The notes beneath the pieces are model-generated. The model was not told the DNA's origin, searched no databases, and was given only the letters and a program-made list of their open reading frames with translations. Shown one piece after another: positions 8,795 to 43,398 of a stretch of DNA of 64,000 bases. The position numbers and the translations under genes were made by a program. Origin of the DNA: a virus; IMG/VR virus record IMGVR_UViG_3300028025_000090; one strand, written 5' to 3'. Each line of letters starts with the position of its first letter. Position 1 is the stretch's first letter.

Positions 8795-9451
8795 ATGTCA
8801 AATTCTAATATTTGTATCTTCACCGCGACCAAAGGCAATAATTGGCACTTTCCCCTAGCTAAAACAGCTTTGGATTTGGATTTGGATCATTTTATTCGCC
8901 CAAAGTTCAACAATCGCCAAGGACTCGCCAAGGTTTATAATGAATTCCTAGACATAGCCATCAAGGAGAAATTTGATTATGTGATGTTCATCCACGATGA
9001 CGTTCATCTGGAACATGATCCTCGACCAAAGCTGGAGAAACTATTTCAGGAATTCGATATTGTGGGCGTAGCAGGGTGTTCTCAAGCAGAAATCAAGTCT
9101 CCTGCACTATGGCATCTAATGGGGCAAGGACACCTACACGGTGCAGTAGCACACAAGCACGGTGATAAAAAATATATGACAAGCTTTGGTGCTTATCCAC
9201 AAAGAGTGGTGATGATCGATGGCGTTTTCATGGCATTTAATCGGAAAGCGATTGAAACTGTGCGGTTTGATGAGGATTGTCCATCAGGTTTCCACTTCTA
9301 TGATCTTTGTATGCAACAAAAAGCTTTAGAAAAAGGCTTGAAAATTGGTGTGGGGGATGTTATCATTACTCACGAATCTCCAGGGTTACGAGAATTTACT
9401 GAGGATTGGAAAGCTGGTGAGAAATATTATTTGGAGGTATACGGAAAATAA
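8795..9451 (+). CDS. Glycosyltransferase-like protein (GT-A fold, Glyco_tranf_2_5 type)
   Basis: GLAKVYNEFL, FIHDDV (DxD-like), DIVGVAG, IDGVFMA, FHFYDLC, HESPG. Confidence 0.8.
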   Translation: MSNSNICIFTATKGNNWHFPLAKTALDLDLDHFIRPKFNNRQGLAKVYNEFLDIAIKEKFDYVMFIHDDVHLEHDPRPKLEKLFQEFDIVGVAGCSQAEIKSPALWHLMGQGHLHGAVAHKHGDKKYMTSFGAYPQRVVMIDGVFMAFNRKAIETVRFDEDCPSGFHFYDLCMQQKALEKGLKIGVGDVIITHESPGLREFTEDWKAGEKYYLEVYGK

Positions 9452-10767
9452 TGATAGAAATTGATTTTGATTATTTTGAAAAGGTTCTTGTGAAGAACGC
9501 GATCACGAATGGTGCTTTTCTGGCATCCATTGCTGATTATGTTCAACCCAAGTATTTCACGGATAAAAATATTGCGAAATATTTTGAGATTGTTGCAGAT
9601 TTCTACGAGAAACGACAATCTCTTCCCACATTCACAGAGGTGAAGACATATCTCACGACAGATGAACTCAAAACCAACTTTAAAAAGTTAATTGAGTCAT
9701 TCAAAGAGATTGATTCCAATCACAATCAGGATGAATTGTATGAGAATACTGAAAGATTCCTCAAGGAAAGAGGTATGTATCACTCTATTTTGGAGTCCGC
9801 AGAGGCAATTTCCGAAGGAGAAGCTGATACTGCCGAGATCGTAGAGAAATTTGAGAAGATTGCTGGTATCAATCTTAATGTTGATAAAGGAATTGAGCTT
9901 TATGGTGATGTTGAAAAGGTCATTGATGACATTTTGAGTGATGAAACCACCATTTCTTCCAAATGGGCATGGTTAGATGAAGCACTAGGAGGTGGATTCC
10001 AAGAAGCTGGTAAGGCATTGTATGTGTTCGCGGGTCAATCCAACATTGGTAAGAGTATTTTCCTTGGTAACGTGGCAGCAAACATCGCATCACAGGGTAA
10101 ACATGTGCTTGTGGTGACTCTGGAGATGTCGGAAACGCTCTATGCTAAGAGAATTGCGTCCAATGTGACAAAGATTCCGATGAAAGAGTTCCGAAATTGT
10201 GTTCCAACGCTTCGACATGCCCTTGAACAAGAGCATAAAAACACTGATGGTAGGATTTATATCAAAGAATTCCCCCCATCTACGATTACCCCTAAGCAAT
10301 TGGGAGCTTTCATCAAGAAAATGAAGGATTCTGGTATCAGAATCGATGCTGTGGTGCTTGATTACATCACTTTAATGACTGCTGCTGGTAGTAACAGCTA
10401 TGAAAAGGGTAAAAACATCTGTGAACAAGTCAGAGCATTGTCATATGTCTATAAATGCCCTATCATCTCAGCTTGTCAGTTGAATAGATCTGCTGTTGGA
10501 CAAAATAACCCTGATATGTCAGGTGTTGCCGAGTCTTTGGCGATTGTTATGACTGCTGATGTGATCGCATCTATCTTCCAGAACGAAGAAGACCAAGAAA
10601 TGGCAGTAATTCGTCTGGGAATGATGAAAAATAGGTTCGGACCGAGAGGAATGACACAAGCTATGAGAATTGATTACCCAACACTCACTGTGCATCAATC
10701 GGAAGATGATGAAGAAGAGTTGATGAATGATAATGAATTGAGTCTTTTGGAGAAGTTGAGCGATTAA
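9451..10767 (+). CDS. gp41: Replicative DnaB-like helicase (T4 gp41-like)
   Basis: AGQSNIGKS Walker A, TLEMSE, IKEFPP, VLDYI, ACQLNR, MKNRFG. Confidence 0.95.
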   Translation: MIEIDFDYFEKVLVKNAITNGAFLASIADYVQPKYFTDKNIAKYFEIVADFYEKRQSLPTFTEVKTYLTTDELKTNFKKLIESFKEIDSNHNQDELYENTERFLKERGMYHSILESAEAISEGEADTAEIVEKFEKIAGINLNVDKGIELYGDVEKVIDDILSDETTISSKWAWLDEALGGGFQEAGKALYVFAGQSNIGKSIFLGNVAANIASQGKHVLVVTLEMSETLYAKRIASNVTKIPMKEFRNCVPTLRHALEQEHKNTDGRIYIKEFPPSTITPKQLGAFIKKMKDSGIRIDAVVLDYITLMTAAGSNSYEKGKNICEQVRALSYVYKCPIISACQLNRSAVGQNNPDMSGVAESLAIVMTADVIASIFQNEEDQEMAVIRLGMMKNRFGPRGMTQAMRIDYPTLTVHQSEDDEEELMNDNELSLLEKLSD

Positions 10768-11663
10768 TGAATACCCTTGACAAATTTATAAAAAATTGTA
10801 GGTATGACATGTCAAAGTGTTTCGCTTGGGTTAATAGTGATTTGGATGGTATTGGTTCTACAGTCCTTCTAGGTAATTTATTTAAGAATTTTGAGTATCG
10901 CCACTGCTTCTTCGGTAAGTTTGAGGAGCAATACCTACCTTGGGCTAAAGAAAATGCAGAAGATTATGATAAAATCTTCGTAGTCGGCATGGTTTTAGAT
11001 CAAAATCTCATCAAAAAGATTGATGATCATCGTGTGGTGTTCGTTTCAGACCGTCCCGAAGACTTTAAAACATGGGATTCCACCATGATTCAGGAAGAAT
11101 GTTCATCTTGCACCAAGATGTTGTATAAAAAATTCAAAGAAAAGGTGGAATTTACGAAAGATTTGAAAAAATTCTTCCTATACGTCGATGATTACAATTC
11201 ATATGATCTGAAACACGAAGAAACCAAGTATCTCAATGCTCTTTATCGTAAATCTGGTGGAAATCGCTTTATTAATTTTGTAAATCGCTTCTGGAACGGG
11301 TTTGACGGGTTCACTACCACAGAAGTTAAGCTTGCTGAAGGTTTTTTCAAGGAATTAGAAAAAGAATTGGAGCAAATTCAACTATTCACAGGAGAATGGG
11401 AAGGATTTAAGGTCATTTCCACGATTTCTAAGTTCTCCGTGAATGAATTGAGCCATTCCATTATGGAAAATTATAAAGGAGACGCTGTAATTGTAATGAA
11501 CCCTGATACAAAATTCGTTTCTTTTAGAAAATGTAAAGGATCGGAGGTTGACATTGCTAAAATGGCTGCTAATCTGTGTGACGGTGGTGGCGGCGAATGG
11601 GCATCAGGAGGTAAAATCACCAAGGAATTTTTGAAATTCAGCGAAACACTTACAGAATTATGA
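10767..11663 (+). CDS. DHH/DHHA1-fold protein with degenerate catalytic motifs
   Basis: NSDLDG (motif I), SDRP in place of DHH, SCTKMLY, DDYNSYD, C-terminal GGGGEWASG (GGGH..AAG-like). Confidence 0.7.
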   Translation: MNTLDKFIKNCRYDMSKCFAWVNSDLDGIGSTVLLGNLFKNFEYRHCFFGKFEEQYLPWAKENAEDYDKIFVVGMVLDQNLIKKIDDHRVVFVSDRPEDFKTWDSTMIQEECSSCTKMLYKKFKEKVEFTKDLKKFFLYVDDYNSYDLKHEETKYLNALYRKSGGNRFINFVNRFWNGFDGFTTTEVKLAEGFFKELEKELEQIQLFTGEWEGFKVISTISKFSVNELSHSIMENYKGDAVIVMNPDTKFVSFRKCKGSEVDIAKMAANLCDGGGGEWASGGKITKEFLKFSETLTEL

Positions 11664-12205
11664 AAAGAAGAACATTTTTAGGAGCATTGGGAGCTTTGTT
11701 TCTCCCCACAGTAGCAGTAGCGAAAACAATTGTAGAAAATAAAATCACGCCCCCAACAGAGGAAGAAGATTTTTATCAATTCTTTTTAAATTTTAACGGA
11801 TTTCCAATCAATGAAATGCAAAAAGGTATGTTCCGTTTTTATAAAAACGGATACACTTCAAATGCTTATGGGCGACAACTTGGCGTATCCACATTCATGT
11901 TGACATTAGCAGCATGGGAAGCATTTAAAGGTAAAACAGTTGTCCATTTTTCATCAAATCAATATTTACGTGATAAAATTAGAAGAAAATATTATGAAAA
12001 TATTGACAAACATTTTGAAAAATATTGTGATGGTAAATTTCCAGGTATTAATTTTGATAGTATCGAATCGCAAAATAGGGGATATATGATGAAAAAATAT
12101 GATGTGGCATTATTAGATCAATCTAGCCCATATTATCACGAAGCATGGTCTGCCATTGCTCCGTCAGTTAAAAAAACATTATTATTAAAAACATATGAGT
12201 TTTGA
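11660..12205 (+). CDS. Tat-signal-like peptide plus degenerate terminase-like ATPase domain
   Basis: MKRRTFLGALGALFLPTVAVA; GRQLGVST; DVALLDQ; EAWSAIAPSV. Confidence 0.55.
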   Translation: MKRRTFLGALGALFLPTVAVAKTIVENKITPPTEEEDFYQFFLNFNGFPINEMQKGMFRFYKNGYTSNAYGRQLGVSTFMLTLAAWEAFKGKTVVHFSSNQYLRDKIRRKYYENIDKHFEKYCDGKFPGINFDSIESQNRGYMMKKYDVALLDQSSPYYHEAWSAIAPSVKKTLLLKTYEF

Positions 12206-12479
12206 TCCATCATCAGAAATTGTGGAAGAGGAAACAAATCACCTCTTCCTATGCTATTGTTCCTTTATAAATCATCTTAAAGGAAAAAAATTATCTATTC
12301 AAAATGTTTTCGTGACTACTCTCCAAGAAGAGAAACTGAAAACAATACTGAAAACGATATTGTCGCTTGATTCCGATCAGGAATTGGTTAGAGTATTTTT
12401 AGACTATGATCCTACTATTTCACGTAGTAAGTTCATCACGAAATACATCAACTCGGAGCAGAAAAAAAGAAAGAAATGA
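12195..12479 (+). CDS. Hypothetical protein
   Basis: 94 aa, overlaps both neighbours in an operon. Confidence 0.6.
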   Translation: MSFDPSSEIVEEETNHLFLCYCSFINHLKGKKLSIQNVFVTTLQEEKLKTILKTILSLDSDQELVRVFLDYDPTISRSKFITKYINSEQKKRKK

Positions 12480-13105
12480 CTGACTTTCAAAAAAGAATAT
12501 ACAATTCCCATCTCGCCATCTCCCGTAAAATGAGAGATAAACCATTTCGGATTAGAAAAGATTTCTCCGACATGGATCAAACCAAGTTAGATCGACTTGC
12601 TTCTTTAGAAAGGTTCTTCAATAGCTATCAGAATATTAAAATTGATGACTACTTCTCTGCCCCTTACGTTATTTTTGAGGATGATGACTATTTTGATTTG
12701 GATTTTTACTTGACTTCCAAAGCAAAGAAGGCATACTCTCAATACATGAAGAAAATTGAGATGGATGATCCTGATTCGGAAAGTTCCCTCAATCGAATGG
12801 TGGATAGTCTCAAATTTGTCAAAAATTTCTGTAGAGAAAAAAACTTGACTTTGAAAGAATATCCATTATATATTGAAGGAGCTTTACCGACCATGATTGA
12901 CCATCTGAAGAACCATCATATAAATATGTATGCGCTTCATGCTTTAGGTGTTTCAAAAATCGAGGTAGAGAATCGTATTCTGGATTTTATTTTTTCAGAT
13001 TTTTGGATCACGTTTCAAAAGACGAAGAACAAATTTTATCTGTCGAAAAAAATGAAGGAATTTTCAAAACAAGCAATTGACAAAATACAAAAACAACTAC
13101 AATAA
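12476..13105 (+). CDS. Possible helicase loader (gp59-like)
   Basis: 209 aa, basic and aromatic, immediately upstream of gp32 as gp59 is in T4; sequence similarity is weak. Confidence 0.4.
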   Translation: MTDFQKRIYNSHLAISRKMRDKPFRIRKDFSDMDQTKLDRLASLERFFNSYQNIKIDDYFSAPYVIFEDDDYFDLDFYLTSKAKKAYSQYMKKIEMDDPDSESSLNRMVDSLKFVKNFCREKNLTLKEYPLYIEGALPTMIDHLKNHHINMYALHALGVSKIEVENRILDFIFSDFWITFQKTKNKFYLSKKMKEFSKQAIDKIQKQLQ

Positions 13106-13116
13106 CTAAACAACAA

Positions 13117-14028
13117 ATGAGTACAAAAACAAAAAGCAAATTCGGTGCTGCGATGTTCGATTCGATCAAAGCAGCCTTAAACAAGGGTAATGATTCGTCT
13201 GGTGGACAATTCTCAAATATTATGAGTTTTCCTGCTGGTAATACATACACTCTGCGTCTGATCCCTAATGTGGAGAATCCTGAAAAGAGTCTCTTCCATC
13301 ATTGGGTGAATGGCTGGAATAGCAAAGCGACAGGTTCTTATATGAGCTTCATTGGTCTTCAAACTTTTGGTGATCGTGATCCGATTTCTGAACTTCGCTG
13401 GAAACTTTGGAAAAGCTGGAAAGAAGCTAATCCCAAAGCTGAGAACAAAGAATACAAAGCAGAAATTGCTCAAAAAGAGCAGTGGCTTGTAAATGTTTAC
13501 GTGATCAATGATCCTGCTAAACCAGAAAATAATGGCACTGTGAAGATTCTTCGTATGGGTCCACAACTCAAGAAAATTATCGACGATGCCACTGAAGGTG
13601 AGCGTTCCGATGAACTTGGTTGGGATATTTTCGACCCGACTAAAGGACACGATTTCAAGATCGTTGCTGAGAAGAAAGGCGAATACACCACATTTGAATC
13701 TTCGTTTATCACTACCAAGTCCAAGACTGTTTTGGATGAGGAAGAGATTGATAAGATTTGCGAGTCTCTTCATGATCTGGAAGCGGTTTATCCCGTGAAG
13801 ACTTATGACGAGCTTCAAGAATTTCTCAACGAACACTTCTTCGTTGGTGAAGAGAAAGAAGAGCGCAAGCCTCTAAAACAAGCCAAAAAAGAAGTAGTAG
13901 TTGATGATGATGACGACGACATTCCTTTCGTTCATGAAAAACCGAAAGTGACATCGACTCCCAAAAAGCAAGTAGTCGAAGATGACAATGATGAAATTGA
14001 TGATCTTCTTGCTGGATTAGATGACTAA
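13117..14028 (+). CDS. gp32: Single-stranded DNA-binding protein (T4 gp32-like)
   Basis: LRLIPN, FHHWVNGW, TFGDRDPI, NVYVINDPAKPENNGTVKILRMG, FDPTKGHDFKI, acidic tail DDLLAGLDD. Confidence 0.93.
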   Translation: MSTKTKSKFGAAMFDSIKAALNKGNDSSGGQFSNIMSFPAGNTYTLRLIPNVENPEKSLFHHWVNGWNSKATGSYMSFIGLQTFGDRDPISELRWKLWKSWKEANPKAENKEYKAEIAQKEQWLVNVYVINDPAKPENNGTVKILRMGPQLKKIIDDATEGERSDELGWDIFDPTKGHDFKIVAEKKGEYTTFESSFITTKSKTVLDEEEIDKICESLHDLEAVYPVKTYDELQEFLNEHFFVGEEKEERKPLKQAKKEVVVDDDDDDIPFVHEKPKVTSTPKKQVVEDDNDEIDDLLAGLDD

Positions 14029-40428: not shown

Positions 40429-40459
40429 AAGGGAGAATCGTGGTGATTCTCCCTTTTTT
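40429..40459 (+). terminator. Intrinsic terminator
   Basis: AAGGGAGAATC-GTGGT-GATTCTCCCTT followed by a T run. Confidence 0.85.
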
Positions 40460-40472
40460 CTTAAATAGTAAT

Positions 40473-40832
40473 ATGGAATCTTTTCTGGAATTTTTTGAAA
40501 AACACAACGGTGTCATACTAGAATACCGACACAAAGATGCTTTCGGAAATATCAAACAGAGTCTAGTAAATCCTAGTAATAAAAAAGGTGGTAGTGATAT
40601 TGCTCGTATGGTTAATAGAAAAAATATCTCAACCAAAGGACCATATCAAAAGATCAGAAGTAATGGGCAAATTTTGATTGGTGATGAATTATTGAAAGAG
40701 TTGGGATCTTTGGGTGGCATCGAATTTGAAGATGGAAAGGAAATTAAAAGAAAGAATTCCAATCAAATCATAAAAATGTTCACCAATTTACACGGTCAAC
40801 AATGCGGAAAAATCGTAGAAATTAAAAAATAA
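40473..40832 (+). CDS. Hypothetical late protein
   Basis: Start reassigned to ATG 40473 (TAAATA-N5); MESFLEFFEKHNGVILEY. Confidence 0.6.
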   Translation: MESFLEFFEKHNGVILEYRHKDAFGNIKQSLVNPSNKKGGSDIARMVNRKNISTKGPYQKIRSNGQILIGDELLKELGSLGGIEFEDGKEIKRKNSNQIIKMFTNLHGQQCGKIVEIKK

Positions 40833-41625: not shown

Positions 41626-43398
41626 ATGGCAGCTAAAAGAAAAAAACAGGAGTATATGGGTAATCCCAATCTCCCAACTGCTGATGCGGTATTTGAATAC
41701 ACACCAGAAATGGTGATGGAGATGGAGAAGTGTAAAGGTTCTCTATTATATTTTGCATCTAATTATTTCTATATTATCGATCCCGATGAGGGTAAGAAAG
41801 TCATCCCTCTTTTTGATTATCAACAGAGATTATTGAAATCTTTCGATGAACATCGATTCAATATTGTGTTATCAAGCCGTCAATCGGGGAAAACGACTGT
41901 AGCAACAGCATTAGCATTGCATGAAGCTTGTTTCAAAGATCATAAAAACATTGTTATTGTTGCTAACAAAGAAGAAACAGCAAAAAACATCTTCAAACGT
42001 GTTCGACTTGCATATTTGGAGCTACCAAATTGGTTGAAGCCAGGTATTAAAAAATGGGGTGATACTGGTTTGGAATTGGCTAATGGTAGCACTATTGAAA
42101 TTTCGACCACGACTGGTAATGCTGCACGGGGTAAAACAATTAACTTGTTGCTATTGGATGAGTTGGCGTTCATTGAACCCGAAAGTATTGTTGAGGACTT
42201 CTGGAGATCCGTTTACCCAACTATTTCTCGTGCTAAAACCTCAAGAATTTTGATCACATCGACTCCGAATGGGGTAGGTAACTTGTTCCATCGGTTATAT
42301 ATTGGTGCAACGAAGAAAGAGAATCGTTTTCATTATGAAAGAATTGATTGGTGGGAAGTTCCTGGTCGTGATAATGAATGGAAACAAGAACAGATCAAGG
42401 ATTTGGGTTCTTATGAGTCATTTGCTCAAGAATATGGTAACGAGTTTAATGATAATTCTCAAACATCGATTGACGAGGAGTTGTTCGACAAATTAAAACA
42501 AGAATGTAAAGAACCATTACATATTCTCAAGGATGGTGCATATAAAATATGGGAAGAATACGACCAAGAAAAAATATATGCTATTGGAGGTGACGTTTCT
42601 GAAGGTGTTGGTCTAGATTCATCTGTTTTGGAGATATTCGACATAACTAATCCCAAAGAAATTGTTCAAGTCGGAGAATATGTTAATAATAAGATAGGTC
42701 CATCTGAATTCACTAATGTCATTGCTGAAATTTGTGGTCATTGGGGTAATCCATTGTTATTAATTGAGCGAAACAACCAAGGAACAGGTGTTTGTGATCG
42801 TTTGGCAAATGAATTCATGTATCAAAATTTGGTATCATGGGGTGCTAAAGAAGCACACAAAAACAAGCAGAATGGTATGATATCCCACATCAACACCAAA
42901 TATAAAGCTGTTTTAAACATGCGTTATTTTGTAAATGAATCGAAATCTGTCACATTCCGTTCCATTGATAGCTTGAAAGAATTTAAAACGTTTGTGAGAT
43001 ATCCAAATGGATCTTGGAAAGCAAAAGGAGGGGAGCATGACGATAGAGTTATGGCTACTGTATGGATGCTGATGTCATTATACAATGACATTGCGGAATT
43101 GTATTTTGAAATTGAGGAATTGGATGATTGCGACAGACCATTGGTGATCAAACCAATTGATCAAGGACTATTCAAATACAAATCAGCAACATCTATTTAC
43201 ACCAACGAAGAAGTTGCTAAAATTGAACATTCCAACTTAGCACCAATGCTTTTTGGTGGGGAAGGTTCCATGGCAGCTAGTGACATGGCAGATTTAGAAG
43301 CACAGGGATGGTTCTTACCTCAAGGTTCCATCAATTCCAATCCTGATAGGAATATTTCTTATGAACAATGGGATGCTATGAATAAGTATTTTGGTTGA
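41626..43398 (+). CDS. gp17: Terminase large subunit
   Basis: YMGNPNLP, FDYQ, SRQSGKTT, RGKTINLLLLDE, TSTPNG, QEYGNEF, GGDVSEGVG.D, IERNN.G, HDDRVMA. Confidence 0.96.
   Translation: MAAKRKKQEYMGNPNLPTADAVFEYTPEMVMEMEKCKGSLLYFASNYFYIIDPDEGKKVIPLFDYQQRLLKSFDEHRFNIVLSSRQSGKTTVATALALHEACFKDHKNIVIVANKEETAKNIFKRVRLAYLELPNWLKPGIKKWGDTGLELANGSTIEISTTTGNAARGKTINLLLLDELAFIEPESIVEDFWRSVYPTISRAKTSRILITSTPNGVGNLFHRLYIGATKKENRFHYERIDWWEVPGRDNEWKQEQIKDLGSYESFAQEYGNEFNDNSQTSIDEELFDKLKQECKEPLHILKDGAYKIWEEYDQEKIYAIGGDVSEGVGLDSSVLEIFDITNPKEIVQVGEYVNNKIGPSEFTNVIAEICGHWGNPLLLIERNNQGTGVCDRLANEFMYQNLVSWGAKEAHKNKQNGMISHINTKYKAVLNMRYFVNESKSVTFRSIDSLKEFKTFVRYPNGSWKAKGGEHDDRVMATVWMLMSLYNDIAELYFEIEELDDCDRPLVIKPIDQGLFKYKSATSIYTNEEVAKIEHSNLAPMLFGGEGSMAASDMADLEAQGWFLPQGSINSNPDRNISYEQWDAMNKYFG

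Follow-up and report, generated by a model that had tools for sequence, protein, structure and literature searches.

Large terminases (TerL) are treated as single-purpose packaging motors, and the N-subdomain I of the T4-type enzymes (T4 gp17; Terminase_6N) is one of the described systems closest to gene X, the open reading frame (ORF) under study in a 64,000-nucleotide stretch of viral DNA (IMG/VR record IMGVR_UViG_3300028025_000090; the window, here, is always that whole stretch). The window comes from a distant T4-like phage of ~35% GC, the terminase of which is at most 38% identical to the terminase of any isolate. X and the terminase used as reference for the comparison are the following:

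11660-12205, plus strand: gene X, 181 residues, a twin-arginine translocation (Tat)-type signal peptide followed by a degenerate terminase-type domain of the ASCE (additional strand, conserved glutamate) class
41626-43398, plus strand: large terminase with Terminase_6N and Terminase_6C, the reference TerL

X has the same ASCE fold as T4-type TerL and the same motif order, namely Q motif, P-loop (R-Q-x-G-x-[ST]-T), 'RG' segment, Walker B Asp and coupling-motif Thr. Unlike these terminases, it has only ~150 core residues, with no lid subdomain and no RNaseH-like nuclease; it lacks the Walker A Lys and the catalytic Glu but carries an N-terminal export-type signal, and it sits in a helicase-to-gp32 block, away from the packaging genes. 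The best solved-structure match of X is helicase domain H1 of reverse gyrase (superfamily 2, SF2; 3p4x, 3oiy, 3p4y), at Z 14.0 and a root-mean-square deviation of 2.7 over 140 residues with 21% identity; common to both are the F..FF...G....Q Q-motif region and the G-x-T-T-F...A-W P-loop helix. Unlike reverse gyrase, X is a single ~150-residue domain; the second RecA-like domain, the latch and the topoisomerase part are all missing, and unlike SF2 helicases X has neither the motif I Lys nor the motif II acidic pair. With substrates of the Tat pathway, which are folded or cofactor-loaded before export, X shares the motif Z-R-R-x-F-[IL], an h-region of mild hydrophobicity, a c-region with a basic residue and a folded alpha/beta domain whose ligand pocket is conserved; unlike the known substrates, it is phage-encoded and its cargo would be a dead motor-ATPase domain. 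A last comparison is one of logic: the T4 genes for the early superinfection-exclusion proteins Spackle and Imm lie among the replication genes of the T4 map (gene 61.3, by its number, beside the primase gene), and X, too, is an accessory gene among replication genes, the product of which would be exported. No sequence or fold relation between them and X was seen, no direct comparison having been aimed at it. Of the two, Spackle (gp61.3) is made early, is exported to the periplasm and blocks superinfection (PMC7677548). X combines known kinds, a terminase-type ASCE domain, a Tat substrate and a pseudo-enzyme, and the joining of a Tat signal to a dead terminase-type ATPase domain is a combination with no described family in the libraries searched.

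The core of X (residues ~34-181) is a confident single ASCE domain, which begins and ends with two conserved elements:

11771-11824, plus strand: Q-motif segment FYQFFLNFNGFPINEMQK, residues 38-55, in which F38, F41, F42 and Q54 are invariant; it aligns with the YQ adenine-binding motif of TerL
12179-12196, plus strand: last strand LLLKTY, residues 174-179, with T178 nearly invariant, at the motif III / coupling-motif position; it aligns with IIITTT (285-287) of T4 gp17

We compared this core with terminases at the level of profiles. A hidden Markov model (HMM) of the X family, built without the signal, picked out TerL among the 230 window ORFs (28.4 bits, E 2e-8), the next unrelated ORF reaching 13.8 bits and the DnaB helicase 9 bits, and scored T4 gp17 at 28.0 bits over residues 140-287, a span covering the Y142-Q143 adenine motif, Walker A (161-168), Walker B (251-256) and the TTT coupling motif (285-287). 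When the family was compared profile to profile (hhalign) with an alignment of 20 TerL sequences, the probability was 96.4% (E 1.4e-9, 131 columns) and Q54 was paired with the YQ motif, GRQLGVST with SRQSGKTT, RG with ARG, LLDQ with LLDE and W..A.P with FWRSVYP. Direct BLASTP of X against the window TerL was not significant (E 1.5) and fell in the register that the initial annotation had drawn by eye between the two proteins; the profile comparisons confirmed that alignment as real, in the same register. The PHROG terminase families phrog_2 and phrog_5989 were each matched by three X-family members, whereas the Pfam terminase threshold was reached by none, and no terminase appeared among the 25 families listed for the 45 members, the 45 aligned family representatives on which all conservation counts given here rest. 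On the side of reverse gyrase, the Q-motif segment of X also aligned with the corresponding region of that enzyme, the family profile matched the Thermotoga reverse-gyrase helicase domain (E 7e-7), and TIGR01054 was matched by eight family members (best 1.6e-4).

Structure comparisons led to the same two groups of proteins. AlphaFold2, run on a 21-sequence alignment, modelled X as a five-stranded alpha/beta domain (predicted local distance difference test, pLDDT, 82 overall and >90 for residues 30-120) that ends at the motif III strand. Foldseek searches of the PDB with this model returned the reverse-gyrase helicase domain (2e-6), the PhiV-1 terminase from its complex with Avs3 (8dgc_E, 1e-5), the P74-26 TerL ATPase (5e-5), T4 gp17 (1e-4) and HK97 TerL (8e-4). 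VIA-align against 48,161 chains placed HK97 TerL (Z 12.1), Upf1 (11.6), P74-26 TerL (11.2) and PhiV-1 TerL (10.8) after the reverse-gyrase match given above, with many superfamily 1 and SF2 helicases next (Z 9-10.6). Structure matches in BFVD were mostly large terminases, and the ESM Atlas neighbours of X were Terminase_6N clusters, both by shape and by language-model features; several of these terminase neighbours are themselves small (166-222 residues).

One family member, P0051, is catalytically intact. Its Walker B context reads LRGLKIDYILCDESAIFEP against ARG..INLLLLDELAFIEP of TerL, and it retains GGKT and CDESAIFEP, the latter mirroring LDELAFIEP of TerL; this context (DESAIFEP) is terminase-like, unlike that of DEAD/DExH proteins. 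That the Lys-retaining P0051 should be the best scorer against the TerL profile was not borne out, since it reached 10 bits and ranked eighth of 45 (best member 17.4 bits). X is safely placed in the terminase/SF2-like branch of ASCE ATPases, and within it we favour a terminase origin as the better supported, because the Atlas and PHROG neighbours are terminases and the Walker B context of P0051 is terminase-like. By profile comparison, the homology of the core with T4-type large terminases covers their N-subdomain, starting at the Q motif and ending at the coupling motif, and in this architecture and homology we have high confidence. Consistently with the initial annotation, which had described a nuclease-less, probably ATPase-dead domain of terminase type and had proposed a profile and fold check against terminase ATPases, the HMM, hhalign and Foldseek matches were all significant. 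Its further description of X as a paralog of the window's own gp17 stood as to membership of the terminase/SF2-like ASCE branch but not as to paralogy, T4 gp17 scoring as well as the window TerL and reverse gyrase at least as well; we rejected a lineage-specific paralogy on the equal score of T4 gp17.

We examined the catalytic site along the same family alignment (mean column identity 19%).

11870-11893, plus strand: Walker A-like GRQLGVST, residues 71-78, with Val76 at the Lys position and R72, G75 and S/T77 conserved; it aligns with SRQSGKTT of TerL
12104-12124, plus strand: Walker B-like VALLDQS, residues 149-155, with D153 invariant and Gln154 at the position of the catalytic Glu; it aligns with LLLLDE of TerL

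The position of the Walker A Lys is occupied by V, M, A, T, C, Q, F, N or L in 44 of the 45 members, P0051 being the only one with Lys, and the catalytic Glu is found in two. In the same 45 proteins Q54 of the Q motif, G75 of the P-loop and D153 of Walker B are invariant, the residue after the Lys position is always Ser or Thr, and R72 and T178 are conserved in at least 90%. ATP hydrolysis has very probably been lost in the family, to judge from these substitutions, and by its conservation the nucleotide pocket is under selection. Conservation of the pocket residues together with loss of the catalytic ones suggests that X binds a nucleotide-like ligand.

The second module of X is its N-terminus.

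11660-11722, plus strand: twin-arginine-type signal peptide, residues 1-21 (MKRR-TFLG, h-region, VAVA then K)
11723-11758, plus strand: linker between signal and domain, residues 22-33, KTIVENKITPPT, with pLDDT low to rising and a length that varies in the family

The textbook features of a Tat signal are two adjacent arginines, an h-region that is only mildly hydrophobic, a basic residue for 'Sec avoidance' and an AxA site. The N-terminus of X, MKRRTFLGALGALFLPTVAVA-K, reads as the initial annotation had it and has every sequence hallmark of such a signal. A start of the form M-[KN]-R-R is present in 35 of the 45 representatives; among these 35 the RR is invariant, F follows in 32 and I or L comes next in all (logo K-R-R-[NTS]-F-[IL]-[GK]-[GS]-L). 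Their h-region has a median of 17 uncharged residues, 49% of them Gly, Ser, Thr or Ala, in a freely variable sequence; a small-x-small site ends it in 34, and the first charged residue beyond it is Lys in 24. Moreover, among the 230 window ORFs of at least 50 residues, X is the only one with RR-x-hydrophobic-hydrophobic and an uncharged run of at least 12 residues. The curated Tat models gave weak matches within the family (PF10518, TAT_signal, six of 45 members, best E 1e-3; TIGR01409, five of 45, best 0.017), and in the AlphaFold2 model residues 1-26 are disordered, with pLDDT <50 for the signal peptide. Between the window and a related locus, L013, the first 30 codons encode 30/30 identical residues at 91-96% nucleotide identity, and protein identity despite nucleotide change indicates purifying selection on the signal peptide. 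The Tat consensus noted in the initial annotation is thus present and kept by most of the family, and the check that it had proposed, for the RR motif in relatives, found the motif in those 35 representatives, about six of 45 carrying a soluble N-terminal domain instead. Overall, these features make it probable that Tat-dependent export or tethering of X is real.

We then considered the genomic setting of X, which lies within a run of genes on the same strand:

8795-9451, plus strand: glycosyltransferase, in the block with X
9451-10767, plus strand: DnaB-type helicase, in the block with X
10767-11663, plus strand: conserved DHH/DHHA1-like protein, upstream neighbour of X
12195-12479, plus strand: conserved 94-residue ORF with no assigned function, downstream neighbour overlapping the end of X
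12476-13105, plus strand: 209-residue ORF between the 94-residue ORF and the gp32 gene
13117-14028, plus strand: gp32-type single-stranded DNA-binding protein, end of the helicase-to-gp32 block

The start codon of X is the first one downstream of an in-frame stop, and this ATG shares bases with the stop codon of the DHH-like gene (ATGA); the 3' end of X overlaps the start of the 94-residue ORF. The block is tightly packed and entirely co-directional, no terminator-like site was found on the plus strand between ~8630 and 14513, and no TAAATA-N5 element was found in the sequence upstream of X. The block is probably an early or middle one. Metatranscriptome contigs from three runs covered parts of the DHH-like gene and the end comprising the 209-residue ORF and gp32, with X outside their span.

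A locus search with a narrow family alignment gave four IMG/VR loci. Among relatives, the order DnaB, DHH-like protein, X, ~92-residue ORF ... ~210-residue ORF, gp32 held down to ~30% identity. X is the fastest-evolving gene of the block, at 82% identity against 95-98% for its neighbours (only the glycosyltransferase was lower, 76%), and in more distant relatives at 29-31% against 57-72%. In two loci (L007 and L009, examined over the slot ±3.5 kb) the slot is empty and the ~90-residue ORF directly follows the DHH-like gene; in another, L008, a Tat-bearing X is present, following an extra 97-residue ORF. X is an accessory gene of the helicase-to-gp32 block, so that its earlier placement inside the replication operon is right as to position but misses that relatives can do without it.

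11826-12179, plus strand: hypervariable core cassette; in blastn against L013, aligned segments end at 11825 and resume at 12180

The DNA flanking this cassette is ~90% identical between the window and L013, and the core between the flanks has no detectable DNA similarity; the core of X has been replaced as a cassette between the two lineages. The N-terminal module has been exchanged as well. In six of the 45 representatives the signal gives way to a ~75-residue soluble N-terminal domain, in an unchanged genomic slot, and a model of a signal-less, Lys-retaining form (L002:335-1006) had a confident core, with pLDDT 44-68 over the N-terminal ~80 residues. In a TerL-rooted tree, P0051 (N-domain, Lys and Glu intact) was basal (approximate likelihood ratio test, 91) and the other N-domain forms were scattered among the Tat forms, P0039 being sister to the Tat-bearing P0042 (98). 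This pattern points to an active cytoplasmic ATPase from which X arose by losing its catalytic activity and repeatedly exchanging its N-terminal module. One Tat-bearing member of 310 residues, P0055, was omitted from the tree, as it has an additional segment in which a GGGKT P-loop is intact; this segment, an insertion or an assembly chimera, matches RadA/KaiC/DnaB models (best 6e-17).

X itself matched no Pfam or NCBIfam family and had a weak match to one unnamed PHROG family. A word-indexed search returned 20 close homologs, and an exhaustive search with HMMER over 1.84 billion representatives resolved the family into 41 clusters at 50% identity, 63-310 residues long and nearly all of 170-240, with no long fused form among them. 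By tblastn, at the sensitivity of that method, X had no relative in 50,697 deposited phage records. In metagenomes from at least nine studies, 60-100% of the sampled words of the stretch 10767-13105 were present; their sources were lake water, freshwater, aquatic and subsurface samples from many independent studies, and the phage lineage carrying X is widespread in fresh water. The family is small yet recurrent across many studies, and it evolves like conflict genes.

X is accessory, diversifies fast and by cassettes, and has a conserved export-type signal; in this combination, within the helicase-to-gp32 block, it resembles phage genes engaged in conflicts at the cell envelope, and we propose a function on these lines. 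The X domain would fold before it leaves the cytoplasm, perhaps with a nucleotide-like ligand bound but no longer hydrolysed; such folding, and perhaps ligand binding, ahead of export would account for the choice of Tat over Sec. The folded protein would then be exported, or tethered, at the envelope and act there by binding, without catalysis, in phage-host or phage-phage conflict. Our committed guess for its activity would be superinfection exclusion, or interception of incoming DNA or of the ejection machinery. We advance tentatively, as a reading short of even odds, that X may be a pseudo-ATPase, exported or tethered, that works by binding in exclusion or a similar conflict; an envelope conflict role, taken as a claim of its own, we would propose with greater reserve. 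The fuller picture, in which the ATPase core of the phage's own packaging motor, recast as a non-hydrolysing module and perhaps loaded with a nucleotide, would be sent by Tat to the envelope to intercept the DNA or ejection machinery of superinfecting phages or to report their presence, with the rapid swapping of the core cassette as the sign of an arms race, we consider unlikely as drawn.

Several points weigh against an envelope function. The export of X is a prediction from its sequence; of the two curated Tat models, neither PF10518 nor TIGR01409 matches X itself, both being very short. Positional orthologs with the soluble N-domain instead of the signal, such as P0039, are scattered through the tree; the same dead core can apparently function in the cytoplasm as well, an awkward fact for a role confined to the periplasm. 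A replication-linked role could be indicated by how closely X is coupled to the DHH-like gene and by its place among replication genes, and DNA binding, nucleotide binding and exclusion by X are conjectures drawn from its sequence. The signal-less orthologs with a dead core keep two cytoplasmic explanations alive.

According to the first of these, X would be a TerL look-alike that, either ahead of export or with no export at all, occupies or blunts terminase-sensing STAND NTPases of the Avs1-3 type, or that regulates the packaging motor or the small terminase. Terminases and portals are reportedly detected by Avs systems (bioRxiv 10.1101/2025.06.06.658234), the terminase chain of the Avs3-terminase complex is among the best solved-structure matches of X, and the terminase homology of the core, the existence of signal-less forms and the accessory, fast-evolving, cassette-swapped character that X shares with anti-defence genes in general all agree with such mimicry. 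However, a cytoplasmic decoy has no need of the export-type signal conserved in most of the family, it would have to bind Avs without triggering it, as Avs is normally activated by binding, and X is missing the nuclease domain. The anti-Avs proteins named in the same preprint are a ligase and a DprA-like protein, with no terminase mimic among them, and PADLOC models gave nothing beyond scattered single matches on the 45 family members. We regard this explanation as improbable.

Somewhat more improbable in our estimate is a replication accessory, in which the dead ATPase would be an adaptor of the DHH-like protein and/or the DnaB-type helicase and its hydrophobic N-terminus, instead of driving export, would anchor DNA or replication complexes at the inner membrane. 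The conserved slot between the DnaB/DHH-like genes and gp32, the overlapping start and stop codons and the terminator-free plus strand would fit, as would the position of the catalytically intact, signal-less P0051 in the same slot. Against it, X is missing from relatives that keep every flanking replication gene and evolves several times faster than those genes. By the well-established positive-inside rule, which we used for the topology of X, the N-terminal KRR and the acidic residues past the h-region would put the domain outside; an h-region of that length, half of it G, S, T or A, is also short for a stable transmembrane helix.

Interference with the Tat pathway itself, the signal engaging host TatBC and blocking or hijacking Tat export with the folded dead domain as a plug, is very improbable: a strong, conserved Tat-type motif joined to a compact, confidently folded domain would suit it, but no jamming-specific feature was found, a plug leaves the invariant pocket residues and the diversification of the core cassette unexplained, and signal-less orthologs exist. 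The least credible explanation, already disfavoured, is a terminase fragment in decay, functionless in itself and with a Tat-like start that arose by chance, for which the lost catalytic residues, the high divergence and the absence of X from some relatives could be cited, but which is at odds with an ORF intact in all 41 clusters at a held length, with invariant residues concentrated in the nucleotide pocket of so divergent a family, with protein-level conservation of the signal peptide over synonymous change and with the confident fold.

If the envelope reading of X is true, an exported, dead derivative with a kept nucleotide pocket would be a new fate of the terminase fold, and X would be a clear case of a phage pseudo-enzyme; if instead terminase mimicry is true, X would bear on how phages handle terminase-sensing immunity. 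Within a limited search of the full-text literature, no phage-encoded Tat substrate of this kind was found.

Some observations concern the neighbours of X. The DHH-like protein appeared partly degenerate by eye, with IDDHR at the DHH position and GGGGEWASGG at the GGGH position, and with 21 bits it missed the Pfam DHH threshold of 28.1; its conservation is nevertheless high, 230 homologs being found at E <=1e-5, many of which bear the JGI name NrnB-like. Tat 'hitchhiker' heterodimers are described as exported with the signal on one of the partners (PMC10924467). For the corresponding idea here, a predicted complex of the X core (27-181) with the DHH-like protein scored 0.10, below the mark, in a run without controls. 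The 209-residue ORF matched no Pfam or PHROG family and is 57-96% conserved in relatives; it lies directly 5' of gp32, a slot that on the T4 map belongs to the helicase loader gp59. Shine-Dalgarno cores upstream of 63 window genes were at background (7.9% vs 6.8%), and translation initiation in the host is probably independent of them.

Two further observations concern the terminase region. A small ORF two genes 5' of the large terminase (40440-40832; probable start 40473, MESFLEFFEKHNG) contains F-x-x-F-F-x-x-x-N-G, the most conserved N-terminal core motif of X, and scored 13.8 bits (E 7e-4) among the 230 ORFs; neither it nor the next ORF (263 residues) could be assigned to a family. Several close relatives of the window TerL (P0063, P0112, P0129, P0134 and P0142) are 930-970 residues long and carry PF14528, and one source labels such a long relative 'intein/homing endonuclease'; inteins appear to invade this terminase lineage, the window copy being free of one.

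The junction after the 94-residue ORF (window ~12479) is a second variable spot in this region. Relatives carry extra small ORFs there, over 0.5-0.9 kb (L001 6808-7669, L013 2385-2886), one of which has an ExoX-like_C match.

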